A DNA stretch of 64,000 bases, taken from Raja brachyura. Its lineage: Eukaryota. The notes beneath the pieces are model-generated. The model saw nothing but the letters and a program-made list of their open reading frames with translations, ran no database searches and was not told the origin of the DNA. Shown here piece after piece: positions 3,337 to 61,227 of the stretch (its first letter is position 1; each line of letters starts with the position of its first letter). The translations under genes and the position numbers were made by a program. The stretch covers positions 22,258,001-22,322,000 of the forward strand of contig OY740813.1 in the NCBI GenBank assembly GCA_963514005.1, read 5' to 3'.

Positions 3337-3436
3337 AACTCATCTGAAGAAGGGTCTCGACCCGAAACGTTACCTGTTCCTTCGCTCCATAGATGCCGCC
3401 TCACCCGCTGAGTTTTGCCAGCATTTTTGTCTACCT
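3337..3436 (+). mobile_element. PLE pLTR-derived mini-element with hammerhead-like core
   Basis: ctgaagaagggtctcgacccgaaacgtt at 3344-3371; flanked by the direct repeat tcgttgagcagg (3325-3336 and 3437-3448). Confidence 0.8.
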
Positions 3437-3510
3437 TCGTTGAGCAGGTTGAGCCGGTGTCATTTGCAGAGTGGTTAACAAACTCTGAGACAGTTGTGAT
3501 AACCACATAA

Positions 3511-3791
3511 GTTTAGAGGCACAATGTGGAAACAGGCCCTTCGACGCTCCAAGTCCACACCGAACCCACAATCACCCGTACATTCGTTCTGTCCTACAAG
3601 CGAGGGAGAATTTACAGAAGCCAATTAAATTACAAATCTGCACATCTTTGGGATGTGGGAGGAAACCGGAGCATCTGTCGGAAACCCACACGGTTACAGA
3701 GTGAATGTGCAAACTCCACACAGACAGCACCGGCAGTCAGGATCGAACCCGGGTCTCTGGCGCTGTGAGGCAGCAACTCTACCACGCTGCC
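3511..3791 (-). mobile_element. V-SINE (HE1-like) tRNA-derived SINE
   Basis: Reverse complement of a tRNA head with box B (gggttcgatcc), V-domain (ccggtttcctcccac) and CR1-type tail. Confidence 0.85.
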
Positions 3792-4572
3792 TCACTATAA
3801 AATAGTCACCTAAAATCACACAACTATAAAATAAAAAGAGAAACCTAAACAGAGGACTGAACGGACTGAAGCAAGTCTGGTCACTCTGGAAAACTCATTT
3901 TATACCCTGTGATCAACGTATGCTCTTATTTTGATCAATTACGTAAAACTGGCAGAGTGCCTGGTGTCCGTAGCAAGCCACGAACACCAGGCACGTGGAA
4001 AGGGAGCTTCCACCCTTATCAATGCCATTCAGTTATCAAAAATATGTCCTGAGTTCTGGTGAACAGTAGCCACCTGACAACGCTGTGAAGAGTTAGCCAC
4101 TTTAATCCTCTTGTCTGTTCATTAGATATCCCTGGGCTCATTAAAACATACAAAGGGATATCTTCGAGCTTCACCTGACATCAATCTGAAGACAAGTCAG
4201 TTGGCCTCCAGAAAACAGTGCTTTTTAATAACAGCTCCTTTCTAACAACAGGATGACTTTGCTGGACTGAGATTAATGAATATATTTGCGTTAATCCAGT
4301 GCATGTGTGACACACACTTTGCATGTGTGAAACTTTCAGCGTGACGTGCTCAGAAGCGAGAGACTGAGGTGTGGCAGATCTACACTAATCATGGGAGTTT
4401 TGCATGGATTTTCTATAAGTGGCTGGAGAAAGCACTGATGTGTTAGGAGAGCAGAAATGTTTGATAAAGATAAACTGAGATGCAGAAAGTACAGGAGGTG
4501 CGTTACCTCGCGAAGCAGGATCCTGGTCATGGCCACGTGTCCCTCTCCCACATGTCCTGCCAGGATCTCCAT

Positions 4573-4883
4573 GGACACGGTGGGCCGGTGGTAGAGTTGC
4601 TGCCTCACTGAGCCAGAGACCTGGGTTCGATCCTGACTACAGGTGCGGACTGTACAGAGTTTGTACATTCTCCTTGTGACCGTGTGAGTTTTCATCGGGT
4701 GCTCCGGTTTCCTCCCACGCTCCAAAGACGTACAGATTTGTAGGATAATTGGCTTCGGTAAAAATTGCAAATTGTCCCGAGTGTGTAGGATACTGCTAGT
4801 GTATGGGGATCACTGGTCAGTGTGGACTCGGTGGGCCGAAGGGCCTGTTACTGTGCTGTTTCTCTGAACTAAAAAAACTGAAC
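4573..4883 (+). mobile_element. V-SINE (HE1-like), near full length
   Basis: Box A-like ggtgggccggtggtagag, box B ggttcgatcc, V-domain gggtgctccggtttcctcccacgctccaaagac, tail gggccgaagggcctgtt shared with the CR1 3' ends. Confidence 0.9.
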
Positions 4884-6090: not shown

Positions 6091-7179
6091 ATTCATGTTA
6101 TTTACCACATCAAAAACTCGAGTTCACTTCATGCCGATCATATCAGTGGCTCTGGTTATTGTTAAATAATTTGTTGTAAATCACAATGCTTTCCGTAGAA
6201 ACTAACAATTTATAAACATCAGATGCCCAAAATATACCCACCAATAAATTTGCATCTTTTGGGACCGGGTATTTGTGTGTTCATATCAGAACACTGAAAT
6301 ATACTTTAAAGGGTTCACCAAAAGTGTTATTGTTTGTGGAAAGTACTTTAAAGTGCGTAGAACCGAAAGTGCAGGAGGAATTCAGTGGGTCAAGCTGCAT
6401 CTCTGGAAATCATGGATAGGTGACGTTTCAAGTCGGGGGGCCCTTCTGTAGCACTTTTAAAATGTATTGAATTTAAAGTGGGTATAATTTTAAAACAGAT
6501 ATACATGATATACATGGCAATAATAAACTAAACAAAAACTAAACATCATTGTAGTTTGACACAAAATATGAGACTTTAAATGGTCCATGACTCTACTAAC
6601 AAGAGCGATCTATTTATTTTTAATACAATTACCACGCATTAAGTATAGACTGTTCAATTGAATTTTATAATATGAACATGTAAACAAACTAAAATTTGGA
6701 TACCTCAGATATGAGCCAACGCATCATGTGTGGCAAGAGTTGGAACAGTATGTTTGAAATGGTTCAAATAGTAAATTTGTAAAAAAAAAACAAATTGCTA
6801 TTAATTGAACATTGTTGATTATCCAAAATATTTCTAAAACAAAACGAGCTCCACCGAAACTAATGAACAAACAGTATGTAGGCAGGAAAACCCAACTGGG
6901 AAATCAGTGAGCCACAGCCAACAAGGTCCCAGTTAGGTAAATGAAATCCAACTGTTCAAAACATTTTTTTTTTAATGTCTTGCATTTTATTTTCATCATT
7001 ACCGAATGATTTGAACCATAAATTAAAACAAACAGGACTTTGTAATTCTCTATTAAAACTAAATTCAGTCCGTGCATGTTCCAAATGTTTTTTCCATTTT
7101 CCAACTCATCATCTAAAATAGCAACGTATGGAAAACAATCACCACCCCATGATGCACTGAATGTAGAAATAGGAGCAAA

Positions 7180-8150: not shown

Positions 8151-9210
8151 CATGCTGGAGGCAGTGGAGGCTCATTTACTGAGTGCAGTTCAACATATTC
8201 CTGGATATTAAAAAGAATAATGGAAAATGGGAATAGTGTGGGAAATTAGAGATGAGAAAGAAGATCGGTAGTAATTTCGATGAATGGTGGGGTGGACTTG
8301 AAGAACTGGATGGGCTATCTTGGCCCTAATTGTTCTAACCATGCATGGATATTGTCCTTTAAAACAGTATGGTATCTAATGGCCTCACAGCAATCAAGTA
8401 CTAAAGACATCATGCCTAAGACAAGGACATGAGGATCGTATTTCTTGCATATATCGTAACCTATTTACAGGATGCAGAAACAGTCACACCATTACTTTGC
8501 AGGTCTTTGCTGCAGTCCCTAACTTCACTGCTCATTACCTCCAGCTGCCAGTGAAGAGCAGCGAGCCTTTCTGCAGAAATGTCATGTTTCCACCTTCGGA
8601 GAAAAGCCATGAAGATGACAGTCTGGTGAAGAGGCCAGTTGCTGTGCGATATCTTAAAAAAAATGCTTTTCTTAGAGATATATTGTATCTCAAATTAGGC
8701 ATGGTTGAAAGTTAAAAAAAAATCACAGCTTTCCGTGTGGAAATAAGATCACTGTAATACCTCAGCCTTCACTGTTTATTTGTCTTTGTAAATATACTCA
8801 TTGCGTCCTGGCAACCACAGCAGTTTTTAATGAAACGTTAATCAGTGAAACACTTCCAAAATCATTCAGGAATATTGGGGGTAGCTTATTCTAAAGGTCC
8901 CACGGCCTCGGTGAAGAAACCACCTCTTCTCCATCCTGTTAAAGGAACTGCAGATGCTGGAGAATCGAGGGTTACACAAAAAGCTGGAGAAACTCAGCGG
9001 GTGCAGGAGCGAAGGAGATACGCGATGGTTCGGGTCGAGACCCTTCTTCAGACCATCCTGAATGGCTGATCTCTTATTTTGAGACACAGATCCCTAGTTC
9101 CAGGCATCAAAGGCAGGGGAAACATCAGCTCTGTCAAACTCAGAAGTTCATTCATATCATTGCGATCACCTCTAATTCTTCCAAACTCAAGAGAGTATAG
9201 CTATTTTCTG

Positions 9211-11012: not shown

Positions 11013-12035
11013 ATTGTAACAAACTATAGAAGGATATGGTGCAAAATAAATAATGACTGGCTTTGCCAGTTCCTACATCTGTTCAGCGGCACAAGAACAT
11101 TTGGATCATTGCTAACGATTAAAGAAGAATTTGTCTCCAATGTTCTAATGTATGTGAGCTACAGAAATATACCCTTGCCTAAAGTACATTTTATTACTGC
11201 TCAATCTCGAATGTTTCAGCAATATATCAACTTTATTTTGCATTGTAACCATGTTCACCGAACAGAGACTGCTTGCTACACCAACAGAGTGGGAATCTGT
11301 GGGCAACATCACAAGACATTTTTTTTCTGTAGTTTTTTTTATTTGTTTTGCCCTGTGCTTGACAGCAAGCCATTTGTCAATCCCATTAAGCTAATTCTAG
11401 CTGTACTTGACTGCTATGATTTGGTTGCCAAACATCTTTGAGGAGGGGAGGTTTACACACATTCTAGAGGAGGGTGGTATCATCAGCAGTGAGAATACTA
11501 ACTGTTTATGACATCCTCCAGATTGTCAGTGAAGATGAGAAACAGAATGGGGCCAACTGTTCCTCACTCGAATTACGAGTCGAAAAAGACTAACATTCAT
11601 TATCATTGCCAAAAGCATGTAGCACAGATCACTTCAATGGTAAATATGCCATAACAAAGCCAAGTTATCAAAAGGGGTGAGTATTTCAATGTATCTGGAA
11701 GATTGAACAGAAACAAATTCAATGTTTTTAACATCACAAATCAATTTGACTTATCTCTCTCCAAGCAGGGAACACTCATTGGAGAAAGACACAAAGTGCT
11801 GGAGTAACTCGGCAGGTCAGGCAGCACCTCTGGAGAACACGAATAGGTGACGTATCGTGACCCTTATTCATCGGAGACTGCCTTTAAAAACAAAATCCAC
11901 CTGGATCAGACCTAAATGGGCTGACTTTTCAAGGTTGGCCAATGACTTGCACACCACTGTTGAAGGAAAGACAGATACAAACAAATTCTAGTACTCTCAC
12001 AGAGGATGAAAAATAATTATGAGGCAGTCAATAAG

Positions 12036-16460: not shown

Positions 16461-16499
16461 AATGGAACACATGAAAGATTTCCTCATGATTATGAAGAC

Positions 16500-16633
16500 A
16501 GTCTGAAGAAGGGTCTCGACTCGAAACGTCACCTATCTATGTTCTCCAGAGATGCTGCTTGACCTGCTGAGTTACCCCAGCACTTTGTGTCTTTTTGTGT
16601 ATTAACCAGAATCTGCAGTTCCTTGATTCTACT
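16500..16633 (+). mobile_element. PLE pLTR-derived mini-element, long-tail form
   Basis: Core ctgaagaagggtctcgactcgaaacgtc at 16503-16530, then gatgctgc..gctgagttac..atctgcagttcc. Confidence 0.8.
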
Positions 16634-18025: not shown

Positions 18026-18852
18026 CCCGTAAATTGAAGAACATCCTCATTTGTTGAAGTACGTTGACAATGCACGATGGGAGTAAAAATGCATCGAATG
18101 TTGGTGAGCGACAGGACCTAGAGTCCACCTCGATAACCACTGCGATTTAACGATCGAAGAAGGGAAACAGGGAACATTGAGGTGGGTGAATTAGAGCAGG
18201 TGAATTCAGAACAAAAAGGGAGAAGAAGATTGGACTTAGAAAAAACAACCATGAGAATGATAAGTCTTTATTAAGAATTTACCATGAAGAATTGAACATG
18301 TGTAACTATAAACAATGTGTAGCCCAGTGGAATGCAACTGCACACTTAATTATTCACTTGCTGGGCAAGATTAGTCGATTGGCGGTTTGCAATTATGTCT
18401 TTAAAGAGATACTTAGACCGTATGCTATTAGACATCATTCACTGTGTTGAATTTACCTTGTATTAATTCACATGTTAAGGATGAAGCTACATTTGTGGCA
18501 ATTTGCAAATGATACAGCATCCTTCCTTGCAACACTGAGGATTAATAAGGGTGAGCGCGTTCGCAGAAAATTACAATTTCTCATTGTTCAATCTCGTAGA
18601 CAGGGTATGCATTCAACATTCTGACAAAGTTCTGACAAGAATCTGCAGATCAAAAACATTAAATGCTTCTCTTTTCCCATTTGCTGCCTGACCGGCTGTG
18701 TGTTTCCAGCATTCTCTGTTTTTATTTTGGATTTCCATTATTTCAAAAAAATATTTTTTACTGATGGATTTAATATTGTTGCTCATTCATACTTGGTTTA
18801 GCCTGGCATTGGTCCTGATGTTGTTTCTTTTCCCTAGACATGCAGAATGTGG

Positions 18853-19120: not shown

Positions 19121-19312
19121 TATCCAGTAGAGATGATTCAGTCTAAAGTCTGAATCATCTCTATTCGTTGGCTTGCCTTAGTACTGCCAGAACGCAGAAG
19201 GTACTAAGACCTACAGAGTCTGTTAATCTTTTTCTGAACAGTCAGAGGAAGGGTCTCAACCCAAAACGTCACATATTCCTTCTCTCCAGAAATGTTGCCT
19301 GTCCCACAGTTA

Positions 19313-21348: not shown

Positions 21349-21431
21349 ATCAAGAATCCATCTATACTGATCTCATTTAGCAGCACTTGGTCAAATGCCT
21401 TCTATATTCCAGTGACTTAAGTGTTTCAAAA

Positions 21432-21528
21432 GAGTCTGAAGAAGGGTCTCGACCCGAAACGTTGCCTATTTCCTTCGCTCCATAGATGGTTCCTCACCCG
21501 CTGAGTTTCTCCAGCATTTTTGTCTACC
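21432..21528 (+). mobile_element. PLE pLTR-derived mini-element, short form, exact 14-bp TSD
   Basis: Core at 21436-21463; taagtgtttcaaaa at 21418-21431 and 21529-21542. Confidence 0.88.
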
Positions 21529-22237
21529 TAAGTGTTTCAAAAAGTGCTTTAAGGTTGTGAGAGAACACCACATAAGTCCAGATTCTAACCATCTTTTGGA
21601 TGAAATAAAAATCCTCAAATTTTCTTTAAATTTCTTACTCTTGAGACTAAACCAACGGCGTCTCATTTTGGTGTCTAAAATGAGACGGCTTTGGTTTAGC
21701 GTAAAGAATAACTCCATTGGAGACCAGTTTCCTCTTACATACCTTTTCTATGCCGCCTCGTATCTCCCCTTAGCACCCTCTGTCACAAAGATAACAAACA
21801 ATCCCAACCTACACTGCATTGCCTGCAAGCATTTTGTGTGTCCTAAAAGAAAACATCTAAATAATAAATAAATCACTACTCGTCAGTTTAGTTTAGTTTT
21901 TGGTCACATGTACCAAGTTACAGTAAAAAGCTTTGGGGTGAGAAGCAGGAAGGGGATGATAATGTACCAATGCATTAAATGGTGAATTGGTTGGCTCACT
22001 ATGTGACTCACAGAAAGAGCTTGGTGCCTGCTGCCCATTTTCTGAGGCAGATCTTTTATTGGTCTATAATGAAGGGGGTTGCGGTGTGCGGAGTTAGGCC
22101 TGTGGGTGTGGATAACTGGCAAAAATGCCGATCACTGTAATCACTGCACATCATCCACTTATTTTGGAACTGTCCTGGTGACAACAGCGATCGAGAACCA
22201 CTGCTTCTGACCTTCTAACCGTGTGTAAAGTGATAGT

Positions 22238-22510: not shown

Positions 22511-23200
22511 ACATACTCTGATAACTCTGACTGCATTAGTTCCACACTGCACTGTATGCTGTCTCCATGGGACCAGGTGTTTGGCACACTGAGGTGAGAA
22601 TGTGAAAAGGCAAATACAAATGCATCGATATTTCCATTAGTGGAACATTCATGTTAATGACATCATGGAGACAAAAGAAAGATCTTGAGCAAAACACAAA
22701 GTGTTGGAGAAGCTCAGTGGTTCAGGCAGCAGCTGTGGGGAGAATGCCCTGAAGATAGATCCCAATCCAAAATGTTGCCCGTCCATTCCCTCCGCAGATG
22801 CTGCCTGACACTGAGCTACTGCTGCCTACTGAGTTATACCAGCACCATGATATCATGGCCTGTCTAGCAGCGGATGGCATCCAGTCAAGGCATCATTCAC
22901 TGTGATATCATCATGTGCACTGAGAAAAAGTCAACATAATTGATATAAATTAAAATGTTTCTAAAGACTACTATGGGAGATTAATTAAAAGTGTTAAAAT
23001 GGATGGCAAATGAAAACTACAACATTACTCTAGCTAACGTAAAGGAAATAGGGGGTTATATAAAAAGCAGTAACTTGTCATTGGCGCTTACCCCATGCAA
23101 TCATGAGGCAGCGTAAGTCTAATGCGATCAATATTTGGAGTTAACGTGAGAAGGGACAACTTTGGATCATCTCCTGCTATGAGTGCGCTGAGGAACGGAG

Positions 23201-25320: not shown

Positions 25321-25537
25321 GTAGGAAGGAACTGCAGAATCTGGTTTAAACCATAGATAGACAAAAAATGCTGGAGTAACTCAGCGGGACAGGCAGCACC
25401 TATGGAGCGAAGGAAATAGGCAAATAGGTTAGAATAAGTGAAGTTTCGGGTCGAGACTATTCTTCAGACTGAAGAAGGGTCTCGACCCAAAACGTCACCC
25501 ATTCCTTCTATCCAGAGATGCCGCTGAGTTACTCCAC
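25321..25537. mobile_element. Palindromic PLE mini-element
   Basis: Arms join at ttcagactgaaga; degenerate TSD catgaa(a/t)at(g/a)catgtt. Confidence 0.8.
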
Positions 25538-34084: not shown

Positions 34085-34290
34085 AAATAAAACACTGCAG
34101 ATGCCGGAAATCTGAAATAAAACCAGAATACACTGGAAACAGTCAGCAAGTCAGACATCATCTGTGGAAAGCAAAACACAATTAACATTTCAGGTCTGAG
34201 ACCCTTCATCAGAAGACAGTCCTGTTAGATTGTCTTTCCACAGATGCTGCCTGAGCTGCTGATCGTTCTCAAATATTTGCTTCATTTAGC
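34085..34290. mobile_element. Older palindromic PLE mini-element
   Basis: Minus-strand core ctgatgaagggtctcagacctgaaatgtt at 34184-34212; the opposite arm carries cacagatgctgcctga. Confidence 0.7.
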
Positions 34291-40486: not shown

Positions 40487-41924
40487 AATAAGCAAATTTT
40501 ACACTTAAATATTATTAAATGCATCAGTGCCAATTGTGACACATGTTACAAAAGGAATGGGCAACCTTCAACTCAGACATACCCCTTTCCAATCTGTGAC
40601 CTGAAGCATCAAAAGGGAAAGGACCAAGTGCATTGAAACAACAGCTCTCAAACAGCTCTCCTCCAAGTCGCACACCAATCTGAATATGTAGTAATTATGC
40701 CATTCCTGCATCTTTTGCTCAACCAAAATCCTGGAATTCCCTTCCCAACAACCCTCTCTGAGCAGGAAGGAACTGCAGATGCTGGTTTAAACCGAAGATA
40801 GACACAAAATGCTGGAGAAACTGAGCGAGACAGGGAGCATCTCAGGAGAGAAGGGCCTCGACCGAAACATCACCAATTCCTTCTCTCCAGAGATGTTGTC
40901 TGTCTCGCTGAGTTACTCCAGCATTTTGTGTCCACCCTCCATGAGCACCAGCACCAGCACCTAAAAGCCTGTAGTAGGGATCGTATTGAAGACAGCAGTA
41001 CAATCCCACTTCTCCTTGCCAATAAGGAATAGTTAGATACTAGAGAAGGTAATTGAATCGGATACGCTCTCTGCGTTTGAGAGATAGCTAGACAGGCCAT
41101 TAAATTTTTGGATATAATGCAGGCAAATGCGATTAGTGTAGATGGGCAAATATGTCACCTTGGATGAATAGGCCGAAAAGCCTGTATCTTTATGGGGCAA
41201 CTTTATGAGTCTATCTATGATTATGCAGTATTTTCGGGAGAATAATCCCTTGCTTGCCTTATCCATGTCATAAAAACGTGGCTAGCTCAGAATAGCTGGC
41301 TCGTAGCTTTAAAACAACAGTTTTTTTGGAAAGCCTTAAGAGTGCAATGAATTAGTTCAACTTACAGGTTCGATCTTCAGAGCATCCCTGTAGCTACCAA
41401 AGAGGGCAGCTTGAGTCTTCAAAAATGCACAAGCAACGCCGTCCCCAGTGGTTGTTGAAACTTTCTTGAGTCGATTCTTTAGTGTTGCCAACTGCATATT
41501 GCATGATGATAAGAGAAGAAAAAAGAATTAGCACTCTTGAAATAAGGAATGCATTGCCCTCCATTGAAACCCTGGTAGTCAGCTCTTACACCAGTGCATT
41601 ATTAATAATGCTACGGATTCCAAAAATATATTTGTAAAACAAGCAATGGATTAGTGTGAATCCAACATATCCAGTCTCAACAGAAATCCATGTTAAATTT
41701 TTATTCCACTTTCAACTTTATTCATAACCAAAACTGGCAGCATATTCATTCAGTATAATTCAATTTATATTATTGCAAATTGTTTGTATTTCTAACTTGT
41801 CAATGAAAGGACACGTAAAGTTTGTCACTTTGCCAAGTGAATTAAAGGTTGAGTGACCATCTAATTTTTGTTTATTTAAAATTACAATGTAAACATGCTC
41901 TAGTTGTTGCATTTATTATCCCCA

Positions 41925-42521
41925 TGGACACAAAGTGTGTGAGTAACTCAGCGGGTCAGGCAGCATCCCTGGAGAATATGGATAGGTGACGTTTCGGGTC
42001 GAAACCCTTCTTCAGATTGATTGTAAGGGGCGTGGGGGGGCGGGGGGGTACGGTGTACAAGAAGGCGAGAAAAGGGGAGAGGCACGACAAAGAGTGACAG
42101 GTAATAGGTCGACCTAGGCAAAAGGGGATTTGATAGGCAGATGGTTAGAACAAAGGCCAGAAATAAGAAATAAGGTATGATACAGGCTTGAGGAGTTCCG
42201 GATTGTAAAGCCAGAGGGAGGAAATTGGGAAGGGGAGGAGGGTGAGTGGAGGGGAGTCCAGGTGGGGCGTGGGGCGCAGGGGAGTGAAGTGGGTGGGGGT
42301 AGGGGAAGAAAGTAAGAGATTTCAACGTTCATACTGTTCGGTTGTAATCTACCAAAGCGGAATATGAGGTGCTGTTCCTCCAGGTTGAGTGTGACCTCAC
42401 TCTGGCGATGGAGGAGGTCCAGGACAGTAAAGTCAGTGTGGGAATGATAAGAGGAGCTAAAATGGTTAGCAACCAAGAGATCCAATTGGCTTTGGCAGAC
42501 CGAGAACATATATTCAGCGAC
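41925..42521 (-). mobile_element. Penelope-like element 3' fragment: GIY-YIG endonuclease C-terminus + 3' UTR + pLTR with hammerhead core
   Basis: ORF 42114-42533(-) gives AEYMFSV...DLLVANHFSSSYHSHTDFTVLDLLHRQSEVTLNLEEQHLIFRFGRLQPNSMNVE, a typical PLE ORF end. A pyrimidine-rich UTR follows, then the core at 42015-41988. Confidence 0.88.
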
Positions 42522-42975
42522 ATGGTGGCGCAACGGGTAGTGCCGCTACCTTGCAGTACCAGAGATCTGGGTTCAATCCTGACCTCGGAGTGTGGAGTTT
42601 TCACGTTCTACCTGTGACTGTGTGGATTTCCTCCCACATCAGGTCTGTTGGTTAATTGACCTCTGTAAATTGCCTCTGGTGTATAGGAACTAGAGAGCAT
42701 TGGTTTGGGGTAAGGGGAGGGGGGGGGGAATAGATTTTGAGGGGGCATGAAGGGCAAGTTCTTCACCAACAGTGGTGAGAACCTGGAATGCACTGCTAGA
42801 GAGAATGGTGGAACTAGAGTCACCCAAGGCAGTCAGGAAGCGTCTAGATAAGTACGTGAAGCACTTGGGCAGAAGGCTACGGACCAGGTGCCGGGCAATG
42901 GGTTTAATACACAAGGGTATCCACTAGTCTGCTTGGCCCAAATGGTCTGTTTCTATGCTGCATGATTCTATGACA
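42522..42975 (+). mobile_element. V-SINE fragment (42522-42690) and CR1 tail (42730-42975)
   Basis: Box B gggttcaatcc; CR1 3' end ggcccaaatggtctgtttctatgctg. Confidence 0.7.
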
Positions 42976-44715: not shown

Positions 44716-45449
44716 CGCTACATGTACTCAACCACCTTTGTGGTTTTGCTTCTTGTGTTCGTCCACTCTTGATCCTATGCCAACTTCTCTGTGTCCAGCT
44801 TCTGTTCAAAGTTTTGGTATGCCTTGCATCCCTGATTTCCCAAACCCTGTAAGCCAACATCTATTCAAGACCTTATCCACACCCCAATCCTCTCCTCCTT
44901 CATATCACATTACTACATTCCTTAATATCCCTTCAAATGTTATTTGGTACCACTCTATATTTGATAGTTTGATAACTCCCCACAAAAGCAAGCAGCTGGC
45001 TATGCAATAATTGCGGACATACTGAATATTAAAACAAGCAGTATATACAAATATAAAAAGTAAAAAGAGTAAATCTGGAAATACTCCGCAAACTAATCAG
45101 CATTTGCGCAGACAGCTAAACAGCTAACGTTTCAAATCGATATATCCCATTTTTTGCAAATTAATAAATTATTGATTTCAAACATTTAGTTCTGATGAAA
45201 GGTCATGGATCTGAAACATTAAACCCACTCTGAATGGATGCTGCCTGGCCTACTGGGAATTTATAGCAGCTGCTGTTTGCATAAAGGAGTGGACCTGCCT
45301 TAAACATAGATGACAAGCACGGTGGGATACACAGACGGACTGAAGAAGGATCCCTACCCCAAATGTCACCTATCTATGTTCTCTGTAGATGCTGCCTGAC
45401 CCGCTGAGTTACAGCAACATTTTATGTCTTTTTGATGGGAAACTAAGTC

Positions 45450-46480
45450 GCCGGTACTGCAAATTGGTGACCCATAGCTTTCTGTTGTTGAGGTAGAATT
45501 AGGGTTGGACAGGTTGGTTTGAGAAACTGATGGTTGTAGGAAAGTAGAATGTGGTTGTTCCTGAACCTGGCGGTGTGGGAACTAAGGCTTCTGTACCACC
45601 TATCCAACAGTAGCAGTGCGAAGAGCAGATGGCCCAGACAGTGGGGATTCTTGGTAATAGATACCCCATTCTCAAGGCAGCTCGTCTTGTAGTCAGTTTC
45701 GAAGGTGAGGTGGGCTGTGCCTGTCATGTTCTTGGCTTAGTCCATGACTCTCTGCAGCCTTTTGTGTTTCAGGGCATTTAAAATTTCATACCAGGTCATG
45801 ATGGAACCAGGCTGGATGCTTTCTACGGAAACCAAACCAACTGCAGATGCTGGAATCTTAAGCAAAGTACTTAGTGTAGGAGGAACTCAGCAGATCTGGC
45901 AGCATCTGTGAAGGGAATGGACGGACGTTTTGGGTCATAGTCATAGAGTGATACAGTGTGGAAACAGGCCCTTCGGCCCAATTTGCCCACACCGGCCAAC
46001 ATATCCCGGCTACACTAGTCCTAACTGCCTGCATTTGGCCCATATCCCTCCAAACCTGTCCTATCCATGCAACTGTCTAACTGTTTCTTTAACGTTTGGC
46101 TAGTCCCTGCTTCAACTACCTCCTCTAACCATGCACCTGTACTCCTAGATCCCTCTGTTCTCCCCATAGCCCTGCCATTCACTGTATAGGTCCTGCCCAT
46201 GCAAGACTTCCCAAAATGTAACTCCTCACATTTCTCTGTATTCTGAAGAAGGGTTCTGACCTGAAACTCTCTCCACCACTACCACTCCAAACCTCCCCCT
46301 TCTGAAGTCAACGATTAGTTCTTTGGTTTTGTTGACGTTATGTGAGAGGTTGTTATGGCACCTCTCAATCAAGTATTCTCTCTCTCTCCTTTACACTGAC
46401 TGATTCAGCCAATCATCTGTGAATTTATGCATGGCACTGGAGCTGAGCTCCAGCATACGGGAGGTACAGAGACCCAGGAC
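45450..46480 (-). mobile_element. Rex1/Babar fragment interrupted by PLE and CR1 pieces (approx. 45835-46265)
   Basis: Reverse translations NVNKTKELIVDFRRG (approx. 46277-46340) and KRLQRV..KNPHCLGHLLFALL..YRSLSSHTARFRNN. Confidence 0.75.
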
Positions 46481-46482
46481 TT

Positions 46483-46795: not shown

Positions 46796-47459
46796 GCAGC
46801 TGGTTCGCGATGCCAGAGTTTAGTGGAGAATCTGTGGGAGATGATTGCATTGAACACCATCCATCTTTATGGTGGATATAAGTCCTATCACACATTCGTC
46901 ATTGCAGCAGGTCTCCCTGGAGAACATGAACAGGCGACATTTCGGATCTGGTCTGAACAAGGGACTACTGCACACGTCTTCCGGTTTTAAAAAAAGCATA
47001 AATTAACAAGATGTGAAGATCTGTCACTAATTACCCTGAACACATTTGCAGTGATATTAAGGACATTCATGAAGTGGGTTTTATGCCAATCCAATGGCTG
47101 TGTTTGCTATTACTGAGATTAGTTTTAGTTCTAAATTGAATGTACTTGAATTTAAATTGGCCTGCTACCATGCTAGGATTTGAATCCTCATCTGTGGATT
47201 AATGGGTCACATCTCCAGCTGCTCGTCCAGTAACTTAATCAATGTCCTACTCAAATCTGAGCATTTCTGATGCTCAAATATGTAATGTCTTTGATGAACA
47301 GACATCATTAAAGACATCAGGATGCAAGATATTTTAAAGAGTCAGTGATGTTTTTCCTGGGCTATCATGATGAGAATAACATCAACGTTCTTTCCTTTGT
47401 GCCCCATTAAGAGTGTGTGCCTTCAGGATATATCACAATATCAACCTAATAAGGTGAAC

Positions 47460-47590
47460 AGTAGAAACAAGGAACAGAAGGTGCTGGTTTATAAAAGAAG
47501 GCACAGAGTACTGGAGTAACTCAGCGGGTCGGGCAGCAGCTCTGGAGAACATGGATAGGTGACATTTTGGGTCAGGGCGCTTCTTCAGAC
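47460..47590 (-). mobile_element. PLE mini-element, long-tail form, with TSD
   Basis: tcaacctaataa at 47441-47452 and 47591-47602. Confidence 0.82.
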
Positions 47591-47672
47591 TCAACCTAAT
47601 AAAGTAATTTTCTTCAAATGACTTGCTCTTCAGCCTACGGTTAACAAAGGCTAACCTTGTCAGCAACAATGT

Positions 47673-47877
47673 ATAGGAACTGCAGATGCTGTTTTACACT
47701 GTAGGCAGAAAAAGCTGGAGTAACTCAGGGGGTCAGGCAGCACCTTGGGAGAAAAGGAATAGGTGATGTTACGGATCGGGTCTGAGGAACGGTTTCAACC
47801 CAAAACATCACCTATTTCCTTTTCTCCAGAAATGCTGTTGCCTGATCCGCTGAATTACTCCAGCATTTTGTGTCCAT
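47673..47877. mobile_element. Palindromic PLE mini-element with exact 17-bp flanking direct repeat
   Basis: cttgtcagcaacaatgt at 47656-47672 and 47878-47894. Confidence 0.88.
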
Positions 47878-49856
47878 CTTGTCAGCAACAATGTTGTGAG
47901 AAAACAAGCGGGATCTGTTGAGGGAAATGGTCTGCCGTTGTTTCAAGTCGGGTCCTTTCTTCAGACAGAAGATGCTGCACGCTTCTTGACTTCCTCCAGC
48001 AGTCCATGCTTGGCTCCATATTCCAGCATCTGCAGTTTCTTGTGTCACCAACAATGGTGTTAAATTGGCCATCAGAGATAATGTGGTAAAGTGCTGCTCA
48101 TCATCTTTCTCGATTAATTTCATCACAGATAAATATGCAGGCATGAGGGTCCATCAGAATTTCAAGCAACAAAATATTTTCCATAACGAAACATCACTTG
48201 GGAGTTTCTGATTATTGGAAAAGAAATATTTCTTCAACATTATGAAACTTTTAAATCACATACCTTCAGAAACTATCATAGATGGATATAAGAAAAAAGT
48301 CCGCAGAATATTATGGCCTTCAGCACAATTTACAAAGAATGTTCCTCAAGGACATCAAATAGTCTAAATGAGTCTGCAAGTAATATAACTGGCTCAATGA
48401 ATGCGAAAACTGTCTTTTATTCCTGACAGCATTCCGATTGTATCCATGGCTAATAAGATCTTAAACCATAGAATGCAAATATGGAGGAGTTCCTGTTGAG
48501 TTGGAGGTTAGAAACGTGAATCGCATTCAGATAAAATAAATATTTGTTACAGGTAATTATAAAGATAGTGGAAATGGCTCAAACGCTAGACAGTATCGGA
48601 AATGATGCACGAAAGCTGAGCATCTTCCAAACAGACCATGATACAAGACGCTAAAGTCGGCAAACAAAACCACCTGCTGGGAAATTAAAACAATGTGGGA
48701 GACTGGCGGCAATCATTTGCTTTACAGATTTAGTTCAATTGCCTGACAGACTGGAATAGGTGTAGAATGAAGTCCGGTGATGATATCTTGGCTGTAATGG
48801 ATACAGAACAAGCTGCAAAGTCTGTCTGGCAGAAACTGTCATCTGCATGAATGGAAAAGTCAGGAACAATTTACTTCTGGATCAGTAGTATTACAAATTT
48901 GCATTGATGCAAAACAGTCCGGGCTTGATGAAAACCATGAAGCCTAACTTGGCACTAAATCAAATTTAGGCAAGCACCTTCACGATCACTGAAACACAAT
49001 ACTACAATCATCACACGTTGACATTTATTTATGATTGTGCTTATGTATAGTATGGTTTTACTCAATTGTACACATTGTTACTGATACGTACATGTGACAA
49101 TAAAGTACTATTGAATACCATTGAGCAATGACAAATGGTGTAAAGAAACGTATATGCCCCAATTAGACAACATCATTAAGCTAAGTGAAGCACCTGGCTG
49201 TAAGGAAGTATACGACATAGGCTGTCATAGTTGCCTGGTAAAGTTATTGGAGTTATTGAGAAATAAGTTACACATTGGTAGAAAACATAGGCAAATATAC
49301 ATATCAGGTGAGGGAATTCGTTGAAGATCAAATTATGATGAAGGAAATTACAGTATCCTAGTAATGAATGCGTAGATCAGTCCTTGTCCGCTAATCAAGG
49401 ACTGGTCCCACCCTGGTCACTCTCGCTTCTCCTCTCTCCCATCAGGCAAGAGGTACAGAAGTGTGAAAATGGACACCTCCAGATTCACGGACAGCTTCTT
49501 CCCAGCTGTTATCAGGCAACTGAATTACCTACCAATAACTAGAGAGCGGTCCTGAGATACTATCTATCTCACCGGAGACTCTCAGGCAATCTTTAATCAG
49601 ACTTTATTGGATTTTATCTTGCACTATTTGTTATTCCCTTTTTCATGTATCTGTACATTGTGGATGGCTTAATTGTAATCATGTACTCCAACAACGCGGA
49701 GCTCGTGGTCCCTGGTTAGCGACCGACTTCGGGAGCTCCAAGCCGCGGGAGCTTCGACCACCCCTACGCGGGAGCTTCGATCGCCGGCTGCGGGAGTTTC
49801 AAACGCTCGACTGCGGATGGTTCGACTCCCCCAACCGCAGGAGAAAAGGATGAAAG

Positions 49857-54374: not shown

Positions 54375-54560
54375 GAGCAAAACACTAAACTACTGGAGGA
54401 ACTCAGTGGGTCAGGCAGCATCTGCGGAGGGAATGGACAGAGGACATTGCGGGTCGGGAATCGTTTTCAGATTCTGAACTCAGCTGCCTGACCCGCTGAG
54501 TTCCTCCTGCACATTGTGCTTTGCTCAAAATTTCAGCATCTGCATTTCTTTGTGTCTCTT
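54375..54560. mobile_element. Palindromic PLE mini-element
   Basis: ggaggaactcagtgggtcaggcagc / gctgcctgacccgctgagttcctcc arms. Confidence 0.75.
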
Positions 54561-55427
54561 TGTGATGTTTACTCATTATTAGATTTAGTATTTATACATT
54601 TAAAGAGATCATGTAATACAGAGAGTGATATTTTATTACATGCTATGTACTAAGTGCCTGCTTGTATAATTAGACTTTGTGAATAACTAACTATTCTCCT
54701 GTAATTTTTAAGAGAGCCCAAATAAATATTTATTTCTCGTTCAAATAAAATAGTATTTCTGAGCAATGCTACAATGGTGAAATAGCTCAGTAAACAATGC
54801 ATTCACTCTTGATTTCTGATTCATGTTAAAAAAAAATAATTTCACTTCCACAAATGTTTAAAGTTGAGAAGCATATTTCTCCTATTTCTAGTTCCACCGC
54901 AGCAGTAGTTTTCAAAATCCAAAAGAAGTCTGGGAGTGAAGATATGGGCAACATTATGACGATATTTGTTCCTTTTGAGGATAGCGATATGTTTGTCAAA
55001 ACTCCTTCTTATCCAAAAGGGCCATGCCACCTGTACATTAGGTTATTCATCACTCAATCATGCCCGGCCGTTATTATTTTGCTCTGGGGGTATTTAATTA
55101 TCTCTAAGGCACAATGCTGCACTTCAAGTGAGCATGTTCCTAATAGCTGATTACCATTTACACAAAGGCGCTATTCGTTGGAAGTATTGAACAGATATCA
55201 ATGGCATTGTCTTTGAATACACAAAGCTTCCATCATAAATAGTACATTTCGAGCACAGAATAATGAATGTTGAGGTTATGATTTCTCTTTCAATACACTC
55301 TTTTCACTCTCCTGTTAAAAGAGCAGATTGAAACCAGTGCTTTGCAGTAACGACTAACAGGCAGAACTTCAGGGGAAGACATAAGGTGCTTGAGTAATTC
55401 GGGTGGTCAGGCAGCTTCTTTGGATAA

Positions 55428-55820
55428 GTGTAAGGAACTGCAGATGCTGGTTTAAACCAAAGATAGACACAAAATGCTGCAATAATTCAGCAGGACAGGC
55501 AGCATCTCTGGAGAGAAGGAATGGGTGACATTTGGGTCGAGACCCGTCGTCAGACTAGTCAGGGGAAAGGGAAACGAGAGATATACTTTGAAGAAGTTCC
55601 CTTCCTCTCTCTGACGATAATTCTGCAGCATCCCCTCTTGCTGCTCCCCCTCTGTGATTCGTTCAATCTTTCTATATCTCTCTACATCACTGCCTATATC
55701 TCTCGTTTCCCTTTCCCTGACTAGTCTAAAGAAGTGTCTCAACCCGAAACATCACCCATTCCTTCTCTCCAGAGATGCTGCTTGTCCTGGTGAATTATTG
55801 CAGCATTTTGTGTCGATCTT
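55428..55820. mobile_element. Longer PLE derivative with inverted pLTR arms, nested in an older palindromic PLE element (55375-56018)
   Basis: Inverted arms extend to ctagtcaggggaaagggaaacgagagatata / tatatctctcgtttccctttccctgactag; 16-bp TSD cagcttct(t/c)tggataa at 55412-55427 and 55821-55836. Confidence 0.88.
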
Positions 55821-56236
55821 CAGCTTCTCTGGATAATATGGATTGATGATATTTGGGGTAGGGACCCTTCGTCAGACTCTGAATTTACAGTCTGAAGCAA
55901 GGTCCTGACCTGAAATGTCACCATCTATGTTCTTCAGAGATGCTGCCTGACCACTGAGTTGCTCCAGCATGTTGTGTCTTTTTTTTGTAAATCAGCAGCT
56001 GCAGTTTCTTATGTCTATAGTACCTCAGGGTAGTCCCACCTGACCCTCATCTGATGTCACAGTACACAAAGGGAGGGACTGCACAACACCAATAACGTTT
56101 GTTAAAGAACTAAATGTTGCGGTGCACTCATCTAAGCACAGATGTGCTGAACATTAATGTGCTGAGATGTCCGAGAAAGGAGTTGCCATTGATCTCCGGG
56201 CGTGTAGGAAACAAATTATAAAGGGTCCAAAGTCTA

Positions 56237-56618: not shown

Positions 56619-57454
56619 AATGCTTTGCTCTTGGTCTTTGATTGCTCCTGGTCTTTTCTTGTCTCCAGGTCTCCTCCCCCATTCCTCTATTATCAGTCTG
56701 AAGGGTCCCGACCCGAAACGTCACCCATCCTTTTTTCTCCAGAGATGCTGCCTGACCCATTGAGTTACTCCAGCACTATGTGTCCATCTGTGGTATAAAC
56801 CAGCATCTGCATTTCTTTGTTTGTACTGGGCATTTTACATTCATGGTACTACCTCACACCCCTTCCCCATGTTTCCTTTACCCTCCCCCACCACCCCTCA
56901 TCCCCCACCCCACAGTTGTGCCTTTATTTCAATTGGTGTTGTTTCATTTTACTCAAACTTTTATAGTATTTTTGTGTCTTTGACAATTTTCCCTCTATTC
57001 TCTCCATTTCTCTTTGCATCTTAAAGCACATTTGTCTCCTCACTTTCTGAAGACCCTGGACCCAAAGCATTGATTCCCTTGTACATCCCCCTGATGCTAC
57101 TGACCCCTTCCAGTAGCTTATCAATAAGTATGCAATGCAAGTTATTCTAAAGTATTTCATATATATTATAGACAGATAAACATGCTTTCCAATGCTTGGG
57201 GGGAAATCCACTGATGCTGTACCAGCTTTGATATAGCCCAAAGATAGAACTCAGCTTTCCCACACCACAATTTGCATGTTACTTTGTGGGGAATTTCAAT
57301 GTAAATAATCCAAATATCCCTTAAAAATAAATACTCTTTGGACATTTTAAATATTGGGCCTGCCTACTTCAAATGCTGAAACCAAACCACATACTGGATG
57401 CACAACTGCATTGAATTGTATCATTTCTAAAATAGGTTTAACACTGAAAATATT

Positions 57455-57750
57455 GATTGATTGAGACGACAGGCCCTTTGGCCCACCAAGTCCACACACC
57501 GATCATGGATCACCCATTCACATGAGTTCTGCGTTTTCCCACTTTCCCGCCCACTCCCTAAACAGTTGGAGCAATTTACAGAGACTTAATTCATCTACCA
57601 ACCGGATGTGGGGGGAAACCGGAGCACCCGAGGAAACCCACGCAGTCACAGGGTGAATGTGCAATCTCCATACAGATAGCACCCGATGTCAGGATCGAGG
57701 CTGGGGCTCTGGCGCTGTGCGGCAGCGACTTTGCGCCTCTGTGCCACTCT
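57455..57750 (-). mobile_element. V-SINE (HE1-like)
   Basis: Reverse V-domain and head. Confidence 0.8.
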
Positions 57751-59089
57751 GGTCTTGATATCAGAAATTGAGCTTTATCTCTCTCTCACGCACACGCGCA
57801 TGCACACACACACACAAATAGATATATGGATTATGTTGCTAGAATGCATGAATACGGAAGTGTGGCAAAAGAATAAACAGGATAGAGAAGACACAATGAC
57901 CTACAGAGGCTGGTAGATTAAAAAAAAACACCAAGTGCTGGAGTAACTCAGCGGGTCAGGCAGCATCTCTGGAGGAAATGGACAGGTGAGGACCCAAATT
58001 GTCCCAAAAGGATCTATAGAAAGATCTACTGAAAATGTCATCTGTCCACTGTTACTCCAGCACAAACTGGAAAGTGTTTAAAATCTCAGAGTTCTGTGTT
58101 CATCCAAAGTCAATGCTATCTTCTATGCACGATGATACAGTTATTCATTAATAATATACATGTGTGATGTTAGAATAGTTTGCATTACTTTTCAATAGTT
58201 AATAAATGTTGTTGCAAAATGCCAAATTCATGGTGCTTTAAAAAAATTGAAATTACAACTGTGCTAATTCCTTCTGATTGTAATTGTAATAAATGGTGTA
58301 AACAAAAGATGCTTCTAAAGCTGTTGCGAGTGCCCTAGGCTTAATCACCAGTAATGTTCATATGCCGAGGTACATCTGCCTAATGCAGTCATGAAAATAT
58401 AAACTGACTTAAGTGTGGTATACAAGGATGTTGTATTTGACATCTCTGCAGGATATGAGTGTGGCATCAAACTTCCTCTACTCTGTTTTAATAAGTCCCA
58501 CAGGATAACTGTTTCACAGAATCCATCAATGGTGTAATACTGGACCAACGCAAATCATTCAAGGACACAACCTCTGATAGATATTTTTTCAAAAGGTAGT
58601 CTAGTGTGGTAACAAAATATTCCCTTTGGCCTCAGTTCTATGCTGGCATCCATTAAAGACATTCTCTACTCAAGGTTCGACTAAAGAATCACCTGGATGA
58701 GGGCCTTAATGATAGGAGTTACAGTTGCTTTTTGGAATTGTTCAATGGCACCACCCCACTTTGGCACTGCCTGTAGGTCCAAGACACTCATCTTTCTCCC
58801 CCTTAAATATTTCCATCATTCTGATCGCCCATTATCCTTCGCACTGTTGCTGCCCCCGTCCTCTCAGTAGCAGCTTCTCCGAATGATTTGTACAAATCCC
58901 CCTTCAAATTAGCTGTTCATTACACAACCCTATCAACTATCCCTTCCCATCCCATCCCAACCCCCAATAACCTCAACTTGACTCGACTTCATGAGCATTT
59001 TTGAAAGACCAGGACTAAACCATCTATAAATTTGTCAAGTAGCTAATTTAATATCCTGGGTTGCAAAATAGAGTCCTGGAAATGTGTCT

Positions 59090-59467
59090 TTAAAACGGCC
59101 GTGAAGCTCGGCGGACATTAACGTTACCGGTCGGTCATCTTTGGTTCTGAAAACTACTGCTGATGTATATTTTCCCCAATGAGCCAATGGAATTCGCCGG
59201 TCAGCAGCGGATACACCTTACGAGAACCTTCGACCTCCTGGCAACCCACTAGGACCTCTTGGTGACCCACCTACGGCACGAGAATTCTTGCTACTCTCCA
59301 TGGCGGCTTAATTCTAGTCGTCGCTAATTTTTCAACATGTTGAGGCCGCGACTAGTCCCCAGAGTGCCTGAACCCCTCCCGACTATGAAGGCGACTCCCC
59401 GGCAACCACCCGGGAACATGTGGCGACCATGTGTAGTCTCCTGCAGTGCCTAAGTGGGACAGGCCCA
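59090..59467. mobile_element. Harbinger-like MITE, right end only
   Basis: Ends aagtgggacaggccca|taa; contains tttttcaacatgttga shared with the other MITEs; no left TIR found. Confidence 0.6.
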
Positions 59468-61227
59468 TAACGCAGCAACTCTACCGCTGCGCCACCATGC
59501 TGGCCGATTTAGTTTGTTGTGAACCTGGTCTTTGAACACGGAGCAGGATAACAAAAGCTTTTGCCATGCACACAATAATACTCTGAAAACAGAGTCTCCA
59601 TAGTTTATGATACTTGGGCATTGTGACTTTCCTACTGGTAACATTTCACTAAATGCAATGTATTTTCTTAGGTGATGTCTGCTAACACTTCACCTAAAAT
59701 TACTGCATTTCTGGGTCCCTTCTTGGGATTGCGTAACCCTGTGTATTTTCCCACTATCAGTTTCTCCAGGTTTCTCATTGCTCAGGTAGCACCTTGACCC
59801 TTGTGTCATAGTCATAGAGTCAGACAGCACAGAAACAGGCCCCTCAGCCCATCTTGCCATGTCGACCTATATGTCCCATCTACACTAGTCCCACCTGCCT
59901 GCGTTTGGCTCATATCCCTCAAAACGTATCCTATCCATATGCTAGAATATTGTAGGGGAACTCCATTATCACCTCACTCACATGTCAAATATCATGTTCC
60001 TACAGGATGACCCAAGCAATGTAAGGATCCTATGTCTCTGGACGTTTCCCTCCATGACCCCAATTGCAAAAACCCACAAGGAATGTAGACACCCTGCTCT
60101 GTCAAGTTAGTGTCAGCGTGAACTCCAGAGAACATCAATCTTTCACCAAAAAATCAAACTACTGCTGCTTTTTCAAGTCTTGGAGAAAAATAATTGCCAT
60201 CTAACTTGAACGCCTTCATTGGTTAAATTCTATCCTCTTTGAAGGTTTTTTTGGAAGATTTGGTGGTCAAATAATGATGGACGCTAACACCTCGGACTCA
60301 AGCTGTTACTGATTCAACACCTTAGCATGTAGTCGCGTCTGAAGAAGGGTTCCAACCTGAAAAGTCACCCATCTTTTTTCTCCTGAGATGTTGCCTGTCC
60401 CACTGAGTTTCTCCAGCACTTTGTGTCTATCTTCTGTTCCTTATTCACTTTCTGCTCCTATTTTCATAAACCATCAAGTTAATTCAGCAGGGATCAGGCA
60501 GATACCAGTGATGTACAGGTCCGGGACATTGATGTTTCCCAACATAAAGGCGCTAAGTCACCTTGCATCATGATCTCTCATTCATGCAGGCAATCCCTTC
60601 ACGTGGCCCTTGCAGACGTCCGGCCAGTCCATCGCGAGCTTCTAATCATTCATTACAAACAGTGTGCAGAGATATAGAGTGAAAGGGAGCATCCTTCCGG
60701 TCACTAGACTGCAGACACACGGAGGACACTGCAATGGACAAATGCACCCAAATACACCAGAGTATTTTAATTTTACAAACATGTTATGATTTACATTTAA
60801 TCGGCCATAGTTATTAAAATATCACGGCTGAAAACCATGCTGGCAATAACAAGTATCATTGCGCAGTAGTCAGTGGCTCTGGCAGAACAGCTGCTGGCAT
60901 TATTCTTTGTCTTACTTGGAAAGTGCCGTTCACTGTATCACTACTGACATGCCTTTTGAATAGGTACATTGGTAACTAAATGCTGATAAAAGAATCTGTT
61001 TGATTTTAGGCACATTCTGTGAACTGATTGAGCAGCCTCTAATAAATCCTTTAAGCTGCCCAGTTAGATGTCCTGACACTGGCAAAATGTCTCTTTGAAT
61101 AGACATAAATGCATAACAGTAGCACAATCTTCCTCTATTTGTCCTGTGATTGTTCAATGAATATGATAGTTACACACTATCATATAGCTAGGTTCTGCTC
61201 GCAGGGGCCAAAATGCGCAGTGCAACC

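Follow-up and report, generated by a model that had tools for sequence, protein, structure and literature searches.

The question raised by this 64-kb stretch of DNA (the window) is what kind of element left many copies of a short repeat bearing a minimal hammerhead ribozyme motif. We built a repeat profile from the copies in the window and counted pieces at E<1e-3. The profile returned 53 pieces at E<=1, compared to 1-3 per shuffled window (n = 5 shuffles), and 49 pieces at E<1e-3, which formed 36 loci, or one per 1.8 kb. The unit was 105-135 bp long, and 30 of the 49 pieces spanned the hammerhead core from C3 to A15.1. These counts agree with the preliminary description of a dispersed short repeat with about 30 copies, approximately one per 2 kb. 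The same description had called some copies young; pairwise identity was 89% at best with a median of 71% (623 pairs), which does not fit that term. We consider it very probable that the repeat is the 3' end, or pseudo-LTR (pLTR), of a Penelope-like element (PLE) with an endonuclease, likely from the Neptune clade, that this end is made up of a minimal hammerhead and an optional tail, and that the copies are old, short and likely dead.

The motif consists of CUGANGA, an extra A, stem II and GAAA-C-G-U-H, and the expected letter was the majority at each core position (C3-A9, G12-A15.1 and U16.1-H17) among the 30 spanning copies. The extra A between A9 and 10.1 was found in 31 of 34 copies having a letter there. 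The 10.1-11.1 pair was G-C in 20 of 30 copies, G-U in 3 and A-U in 3, and positions 15.2-16.2 of helix III were CG in 16 of 38, the remainder being mostly products of CpG decay (10 TG, 8 CA). Stem I was 2 bp with 75% of cells paired (2-3 bp in the preliminary description). Stem II had been described as 5 bp (GGGTC/GACCC); its common form instead has 4 bp and a 4-nt loop, a difference from the known PLE motifs as well. A fifth C-G pair would leave a 2-nt hairpin loop, which is beyond the steric limit. Minimal type I hammerheads in the pLTRs of metazoan PLEs were described in 2014 by Cervera and De la Pena (PMC4209133), and the proposed assignment to this type is supported: the window motif fits the published consensus in its CUGANGA core, extra nucleotide before 10.1, G10.1-C11.1, palindromic 15.2-16.2 without loop III, and short stem I, 2-bp examples of which are also published (PMC4209133). 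Comparison with Rfam, which had been suggested, gave no match to any hammerhead family at E values up to 10 for either the whole window or 21400-21600, as expected since the motif lacks helix III.

All 12 core letters were kept in 12 of the 30 spanning copies, and 7 of 30 were fully intact (all core letters, 4/4 stem II pairs and a palindromic ACGU). Intact or near-intact motifs had been listed at seven places and all were recovered, with C3 at 3344+, 16503+, 21436+, 25167+, 38526+, 24917- and 42015-. Four of these are solo units identified with the profile: 3338..3447 (+; hammerhead 3344-3371, short 3' end), 16498..16623 (+; 16503-16530, one G-U wobble in stem II [GACTC], long tail), 21430..21555 (+; 21436-21463, short 3' end, envelope overshooting) and 24813..24922 (-; 24890-24917). 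The description of helix III as self-complementary ACGT without a loop was correct for the seven intact copies but not for 34212 (AUGU), 45192 (ACAU) or 60339 (AAGU). These three, offered with 55892 as subfamily examples, do have intact cores, whereas 55892 carries the core change A9C. The 45192 copy is a solo CUGAUGA variant with A10.1-U11.1 (45190..45269, +; core 45192-45220), and the 60339 copy is also solo (60333..60436, +; core 60339-60366).

The pLTR unit at 41893..42020 (-; intact hammerhead 41988-42015, short 3' end overshot by the profile envelope) is continuous with the end of a GIY-YIG ORF, and a site after the endonuclease ORF is likewise that of the published PLE hammerheads. This ORF, at 42309..42533 (-), is a 5'-truncated C-terminal remnant of a PLE GIY-YIG endonuclease taken from the ORF list, with 40 phmmer matches at E<=0.001 (best E 1.1e-11), a match to the PLE ORF profile (iE 2e-13) and 47% identity to the zebra-shark RT-EN protein P0051 (E 1e-18). 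Between it and the hammerhead lies a pyrimidine-rich 3' UTR (42016..42308, -). The endonuclease end (E 1.5e-11) and the hammerhead frame (E 0.004) each have a match in a relative, P0024, where they follow one another in this order at similar spacing. The P0051 C-terminal read-through resembles the hammerhead frame by eye and had no tblastn match to the units, and an N-terminal ORF start inside the unit had no assignable match. This continuity and the PLE insertion signatures given below speak against the earlier claim of an independent, non-coding mobile family.

The remnant matched no Pfam family and does not include the linker region, so the clade assignment rests on relatives. A search with P0029, a stingray relative, gave 334 proteins with RT, PF26215 and GIY-YIG annotations, among which ray and shark proteins matched best. 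Among the 120 relatives listed of these 334, an RT YIDD-type motif was present in 101 and an endonuclease module in 67, of which 61 had a separate CX2-5CxxC linker; RT and endonuclease share a single ORF in relatives such as P0048 and P0051. The linker is a mark of Neptune and Nematis (PMC8557442). The element is likely of the Neptune clade, with the linker seen in its relatives being common to Nematis too. Endonuclease-bearing Neptune-clade PLEs (Craig et al. 2021, PMC8557442; for structure, Arkhipova et al. 2013, PMC3846280) share the C-terminal GIY-YIG with CxxC, the linker (in relatives) and 5' truncation; they differ in that nearly all window copies retain just the pLTR, starting with the hammerhead.

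Head-to-head pairs made up 13 of the 36 loci, and 12 of 15 cases of neighbors within 30 nt were head-to-head. An extra 3' tail was present on exactly one arm in 12 of 13 pairs and on both arms in none (permutation p 0.006). Flanking duplications with a score of at least 9, which were 12-17 bp and surrounded the whole pair, were found in 6 of 13 pairs compared to 0 of 155 mismatched controls; the other 7 pairs had no clear duplication at that score. The six are 25056..25259 (plus arm with intact hammerhead 25167-25194, tail on the minus arm; 12 bp, 25034-25045 / 25259-25270), 25328..25539 (joined at one base, minus-arm stem II broken, plus arm G12A; 16 bp with 2 mismatches, 25305-25320 / 25538-25553), 47677..47884 (G12A; perfect 17 bp, 47656-47672 / 47878-47894), 55433..55828 (UTR sequence between arms, both cores broken; 16 bp, 55412-55427 / 55821-55836), 22683..22844 (no tail on either arm; 12 bp with 1 mismatch) and 40769..40939 (truncated cores; 14 bp with 2 mismatches). 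The others are 38417..38647 (plus arm with intact hammerhead 38526-38553 and tail, minus core broken), 55821..56009 (G12C and A9C, plus arm A10.1-U11.1), 34091..34263 (minus arm a CUGAUGA variant with intact core 34184-34212, 5-bp stem II and helix III AUGU), 35489..35643 (plus-arm core intact at 35546, helix III AUGU), 54377..54544 (broken core), and the decayed pairs 2175..2363 and 26955..27132. Head-to-head inverted pLTRs, one-ended tails and flanking duplications have been described for PLEs, including the Neptune clade (PMC3846280; PMC8557442), although the duplications are 8-10 bp in rotifer examples.

Published work on other PLEs suggests how such loci could arise. The RT-endonuclease, probably as a dimer, would nick both target strands, and reverse transcription would start at two internal sites approximately 25-35 nt apart, giving short and long 3' ends. 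With both strands primed, the product would be a single head-to-head insertion with the tail on one side. The RNA template would be uncleaved, because copies contain the complete hammerhead instead of beginning at the cleavage site; the one exception among 49 pieces to start within 2 nt of the predicted site is 57899..57989 (-). In line with this count, uncleaved RNA is the insertion substrate of a PLE of the anole (PMC11167929). That element, PAc, a Poseidon element of Anolis carolinensis (Frangieh et al. 2024, PMC11167929), resembles the present one in having two 3' ends that delimit a tail downstream of the hammerhead and in copies made from uncleaved RNA, as we infer here. It belongs to another clade, and its hammerhead was assayed and is protein-assisted, whereas the window motif is known from sequence alone.

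The arrangement of copies also bears on the earlier comparison to retrozymes, by which a non-LTR retrozyme family would replicate via hammerhead-cut circular RNA monomers. A hammerhead in a high-copy non-coding repeat would suit this explanation, and pLTR-derived retrozymes have been reported in one chondrichthyan genome (bioRxiv 2026.07.22.740005). Metazoan non-LTR retrozymes (PMC7229834; bioRxiv 10.64898/2026.07.22.740005) are likewise non-coding and PLE-related with type I hammerheads; theirs, however, are tandem head-to-tail units with circular RNAs and canonical hammerheads, which have loop-loop contacts, whereas the copies here are scattered, stand alone or head-to-head, and carry a minimal motif with a 2-bp stem I. 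The window contained no tandem array of the unit, and copies were not permuted at the cleavage site. The closest fully intact same-strand motifs were 3.7 kb apart, and a same-strand pair 550 nt apart had one broken stem II; no two intact same-strand motifs in the window are near enough to make a cis dimer likely. The retrozyme reading is largely refuted for this window, and we consider it highly improbable.

A fixed 5' edge was another regularity. Among core-bearing copies, 26 of 30 started 1-3 nt before the core with nothing shared further upstream, and UTR sequence was kept in only 4 of 30. In run X1, 70,020 contigs fell on the region 41860-42580, and joints between opposite strands occurred at the 5' edge of the hammerhead; summed contig depth was approximately 3 million across the hammerhead and had dropped to a few hundred by 20-40 nt upstream. 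We found no published description of such an edge with near-absent cleavage-site starts. The edge could mean that the source was a short non-autonomous master of approximately 135 nt, beginning just before the hammerhead, which derived from a PLE pLTR and was mobilized in trans by PLE protein in the manner of a SINE. Non-autonomous PLE derivatives are published (PMC8557442, bioRxiv 2026.07.22.740005), only 1 of 36 loci had a significant ORF remnant by the PLE ORF profile, and neither an RT of the PLE kind by that profile nor a full element between two direct pLTRs was found in the window. However, short and UTR-bearing copies are interleaved in sequence, several subfamilies have the same boundary, the unit has no tRNA head, and the reference copy has a diverged, C-rich UTR, which explains part of the fall in depth. 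We regard such a master as unlikely. It would differ from the preferred reading, the pLTR of a full PLE, in source RNA only; the PLE machinery is the same. Upstream of the 56695 unit, a possible ORF trace at 56359-56502 was non-significant (iE 3.4).

Within the PLE reading, we tentatively suggest a cause for the edge, which is possible though doubtful. The RNA may start three bases ahead of the core, with the A of TCAGTC, an initiator-like sequence, and the mini-copies may be run-off (strong-stop) cDNAs primed in the 5' pLTR of the uncleaved transcript, often two per insertion. If true, the 2-3 bp stem I would be accounted for, a hammerhead at the extreme RNA 5' end would be a cap-removing switch, and hundreds of thousands of mini-copies would make skate and ray genomes a natural record of PLE reverse-transcription intermediates.

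The repeat does not represent a new mobile family; it is an ordinary new example of the known PLE minimal hammerhead ends in a ray/shark-type genome. The class gains little from it, such ends having been known since 2014, and the annotation is corrected in that approximately 7% of the window (4,618 bp) is PLE end-piece instead of a new RNA family. As in other PLEs, most motifs are dispersed and single, with some opposite-strand pairs; in contrast, no cartilaginous fish is among the motifs of Table S1 and Fig. S3 of PMC4209133, and 30 motifs in 64 kb is a density far above that of the 4,000-9,000 per genome in coelacanth and Xenopus. The very high copy number, one-armed tail, 12-17 bp duplications and fixed 5' edge make a large data set that bears on how PLEs build inverted insertions and on the role of their hammerhead.

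The hammerhead motif is probably a self-cleaving one. Selection on it would act in active source elements and not in inserted copies, and in source elements cleavage would require a dimer or the help of a protein. The alternative that inserted motifs are kept as active ribozymes cutting host transcripts could appeal to the seven intact copies and to 1,560 matching contigs in one run, the RNA label of which is a guess. The C11.1-G12 dinucleotide speaks against it: 17 copies had CG, 8 TG, 8 CA and 4 other (n = 37), meaning that the wobble was kept in 8 copies and the catalytic G12 lost in 8. Loss of G12 by G12A is as frequent as the tolerated C11.1U, the pattern of CpG decay acting symmetrically on a dinucleotide that includes the catalytic G12. 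Monomers folded no better than shuffles, with competing alternative folds (z -0.64 to 2.15), head-to-head pairs would form long hairpins (38417..38647 folds as one), and published single minimal hammerheads were uncleaved, as were 8 of 9 Xenopus dimers. We give this alternative almost no credence. Non-CpG core columns departed from the majority letter in 14 of 347 cells, compared to 400 of 2313 downstream; subfamily-diagnostic columns and clipping by local alignment exaggerate this contrast.

The same decay accounts for most of the stem II covariation noted earlier, which is mainly one-sided C-to-T change at the C11.1-G12 CpG; two-sided change is genuine but limited (10 of 210 cells). Among the 30 related sequences, the covariation score was 0.241 compared to 0.172±0.019 when shuffled (reached by 1 of 500 shuffles), and two tree-robust measures were reached by 17 and 7 of 500. 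Covariation in the window copies is weak, and the case shows how CpG decay may imitate stem covariation in methylated genomes. Decayed solo units included 8943..9056 (-; tail, A15.1 changed, internal deletion), 19238..19307 (+; U4 and G12 changed), 35141..35255 (-; A9 and G12), 45338..45440 (+; G12), 47470..47594 (-; G12, broken stem II), 56695..56814 (+; tail, 3-nt core deletion, pyrimidine-rich UTR upstream) and the fragment 47905..47967 (-; U16.1 changed, A10.1-U11.1). Smaller pieces were a hammerhead-only fragment that stops before the cleavage site (46238..46267, +), 3' fragments without the hammerhead (2955..3025, +; 55367..55425, -), fragments beginning inside the core (6362..6447, -), at U4 with stem II deleted (11779..11870, -) or in loop II with a tail (45837..45937, -), a short fragment (46906..46948, -) and a diverged one (18649..18732, +).

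A plain pattern search for CUGANGA...GAAA returned 21 matches in the window, 15 of which lay within one repeat family. A search profile for this 105-135 bp unit, a minimal hammerhead with an optional 3' tail, was built from 12 window copies and found 53 pieces at E<=1 in the window compared to 1-3 per shuffled window (5 shuffles). Further work used the 49 pieces that scored E<1e-3, leaving out four weak matches; the 49 pieces make up 36 loci and 4,618 bp of the window. The core was spanned by 30 of the 49, and all 12 core letters were kept in 12 of these 30. In seven of the 30, stem II additionally had its four pairs and helix III its palindromic ACGU; the preliminary description had named exactly these seven copies as intact. 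The copies are old, as judged from a best identity of 89% and a median of 71%. Tail-only scraps of the unit lay outside the 49 pieces at 19734-19790, 10111, 32437 and 48024, with two in tandem at 19734 and 19752. Another CUGAUGA...GAAA match, at 5301-5325 (+), is unrelated to the unit family, and its middle has no clear stem. Positions 32216-32410 are a 195-N assembly gap.

The motif fits, feature by feature, the consensus for minimal hammerheads of Cervera and De la Pena 2014, as given in the portions of that article available to us (PMC4209133). Dispersed single motifs and opposite-strand pairs were already described there, and those portions name no cartilaginous fish among the hosts. The motif is real, was correctly recognized and is of a known kind, with one testable oddity. 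The suggested likeness to retrozymes, as these are defined in the available parts of PMC7229834, PMC7761336 and PMC6155905, fails on both tandem organization and hammerhead type; retrozymes themselves have been reported from one chondrichthyan (bioRxiv 2026.07.22.740005, available part). A search of the openly available literature found no elasmobranch description of this family. Comparison with Rfam, proposed as a check on the motif, gave no hammerhead model match in the window; the microRNA-like and plastid Rfam matches there were the hairpins formed by head-to-head unit pairs. An exact 27-nt pattern had 0 matches in metagenome contigs.

Two features precede the unit copy at 42015 (-) on its 5' side: a pyrimidine-rich stretch of 290 nt, and a reading frame whose last residues are EEQHLIFRFG. 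This 71-residue remnant, at 42309-42533 (-), had 40 relatives at E<=0.001 and was 47% identical to a zebra shark protein (P0051). A stingray relative (P0029), used as query, retrieved 334 proteins, the best from rays and sharks and others from corals and echinoderms; the annotations of these proteins include reverse transcriptase (RT), PF26215 and GIY-YIG. Among the best 120 of the 334, the RT aspartate motif was present in 101 and an endonuclease module in 67, and 61 of those 67 carried a separate CX2-5CxxC linker, a mark of the Neptune and Nematis clades according to the available part of PMC8557442. A profile from 20 relatives matched 42533-42309 at iE 2e-13, its sole significant match in the window; with the same profile, a candidate second trace of the frame at 56359-56502 was not significant (iE 3.4). 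One relative, P0024, matches the end of the endonuclease as well as the hammerhead frame, arranged as in the window copy. Taken together, the relatives, the profile match and this shared order identify the repeat as the 3'-terminal pseudo-LTR of a Penelope-like element (PLE). Judging from the relatives, an elasmobranch host is likely. The remnant matched no Pfam family, was found in 0 of 346 candidates in a word-indexed search of longer proteins, and had no usable match in the ESM Atlas; a sequence search of the PDB with P0029 gave no match. Five predicted ray or shark host proteins (P0012, P0014, P0028, P0044 and P0046) have the endonuclease end of this PLE as their last annotated exon, which is either exonization or a gene-model error.

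Head-to-head unit pairs made up 13 of the 36 loci. Two classes of 3' end were seen for the unit, separated by about 25 profile positions, with the longer end extending several bases more. The longer end was on exactly one arm in 12 of the 13 pairs and on both arms in none (p 0.006). Direct repeats of 12-17 bp at score >=9 surrounded 6 of the 13 pairs compared to 0 of 155 mismatched flank pairs; because these repeats flank the whole pair, each such pair is a single insertion. Known features of PLEs include pseudo-LTRs in inverted arrangement, a tail on one side only and duplications in the flanks (PMC3846280, PMC8557442 and PMC8969392, in the parts available). Considered as a target preference, AT-richness gave no signal (59.6% in 14 flanks vs. 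57.1% background). No tRNA-derived head was found on the unit.

A candidate mechanism comes from an anole PLE, as described in the available portions of PMC11167929. The purified anole protein nicks both strands and begins reverse transcription internally, at either of two positions whose spacing defines the tail. That element inserts from uncleaved RNA; its hammerhead cuts only in the presence of the protein and is dispensable for insertion. Anole-like double nicking with two internal RT starts would, by analogy, yield two 3' ends and paired insertions here. In the window, 32 of the 49 pieces began at or before the core and only 1 began two bases or less from the cleavage site, in agreement with an anole-like use of uncleaved RNA.

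The inserted hammerhead motifs are unlikely to be functional, since the predicted monomer folds no better than shuffles, giving no support for a stable hammerhead, head-to-head pairs would form long hairpins, and no two fully intact motifs on one strand of the window are closer than 3.7 kb. In published work, as far as the available text goes, minimal motifs failed to cleave as single copies and cleaved weakly as dimers (PMC4209133); for Xenopus, cleavage was reported for 1 of 9 dimers (bioRxiv 2026.07.22.740005).

Stem II in its common form has four pairs and a four-base loop; the fifth pair proposed in the preliminary description would enclose a loop of only two bases. C11.1 and the catalytic G12 form a CpG, which in 37 copies read CG in 17, TG in 8 (wobble kept), CA in 8 (G12 lost) and otherwise in 4. 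Other CpGs of the unit acted likewise, with 10 TG and 8 CA in helix III and 9 TG and 5 CA in loop II. Such a pattern is the expected outcome of unselected decay in methylated DNA. The supposedly kept wobble of stem II is a change at the C11.1-G12 CpG, where G12 is lost equally often. Two-sided changes were limited to 10 of 210 cells in the 30-copy alignment. These include three A-U pairs at 10.1-11.1, 2 of the 3 in copies with a broken core, and a U-A in stem I in both CUGAUGA copies. The covariation score was reached by 1 of 500 shuffles of the 30 copies, and two relatedness-resistant measures were reached by 17 of 500 and 7 of 500. Non-CpG core columns were off-majority in 14 of 347 cells compared to 400 of 2,313 downstream. 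This contrast suggests that source lineages retained the core while drifting elsewhere, although it is inflated by columns that differ between subfamilies and by clipping at the ends.

Public sequencing runs were compared with the window. For run X1, 70,020 contigs fell on 41860-42580, and contigs of this run had 3 differences from the window across 147 letters and 4 across 237. Summed X1 depth over the unit was 3.0-3.8 million compared to about 10 for locus-specific contigs; this depth is not itself a copy number and indicates only the order of magnitude, 100,000 or more unit copies. Opposite-strand joints in X1 concentrated at the 5' edge of the hammerhead. Raw-read runs X22 and X23 were uninformative, with 4 and 1 matching reads, all less than 90% alike.

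This 5' edge is fixed. Only 4 of the 30 core-bearing copies kept the pyrimidine-rich UTR sequence, and the other 26 shared T at -1 (21), G at -2 (18) and A at -3 (12, p 0.03), with none shared farther out. Loose ends at the edge were the largest 5'-side class in X1, although with low agreement. Random 5' truncation would not produce so fixed an edge. The boldest reading is that the edge is the RNA start and the short copies are run-off products. The edge sequence matches the YYANWYY consensus of initiators. An initiator-like TCACT has been noted in a rotifer pseudo-LTR (PMC3846280, available part). An extra G at -4, as a cap would leave, was the plurality letter among loose ends in X1 and in X17, a run labeled RNA by guess whose contigs cannot reveal RNA ends, but it was present in only 6 of the 26 window copies and was not counted. 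D. virilis speaks against this reading, as its start is 125 nt upstream of C3 and the end of an intron lies 5 nt upstream of C3 (available parts of PMC2377424 and PMC4209133 Table S1). By comparison, reverse transcription in the skate element may stall at a splice acceptor formed by the pyrimidine tract and AG. A short non-autonomous master would likewise give a fixed edge, as would antisense self-priming (PMC3846280, available part). No mention of such an edge was found in the openly available literature.

Another abundant repeat, about 170-190 bp long (families D5, D13 and D20), occurred on both strands, at 3611-3785, 4577-4767, 18855-19045, 29989-30156, 35688-35855, 40297-40464, 46609-46776, 57566-57733 and 61236-61426. 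It looks like a tRNA-derived SINE head; ARAGORN called no tRNA. Diverged LINE reverse-transcriptase remnants (Pfam RVT_1) at 49720-51354 (+) and 51560-53048 (-) are inverted and form a 3-kb imperfect palindrome (78-85%). By eye, the frame at 14873-15316 (+) resembles the C-terminus of an L2-type LINE ORF2, with no Pfam match. A Tc1/mariner-type transposase fragment was located at 36362-36883 (+) (DDE_3, E 8e-4), and inverted repeats of about 225 bp with 95% identity, at 11025-11251 and 14102-14327 and 2.85 kb apart, are possibly DNA transposon ends.
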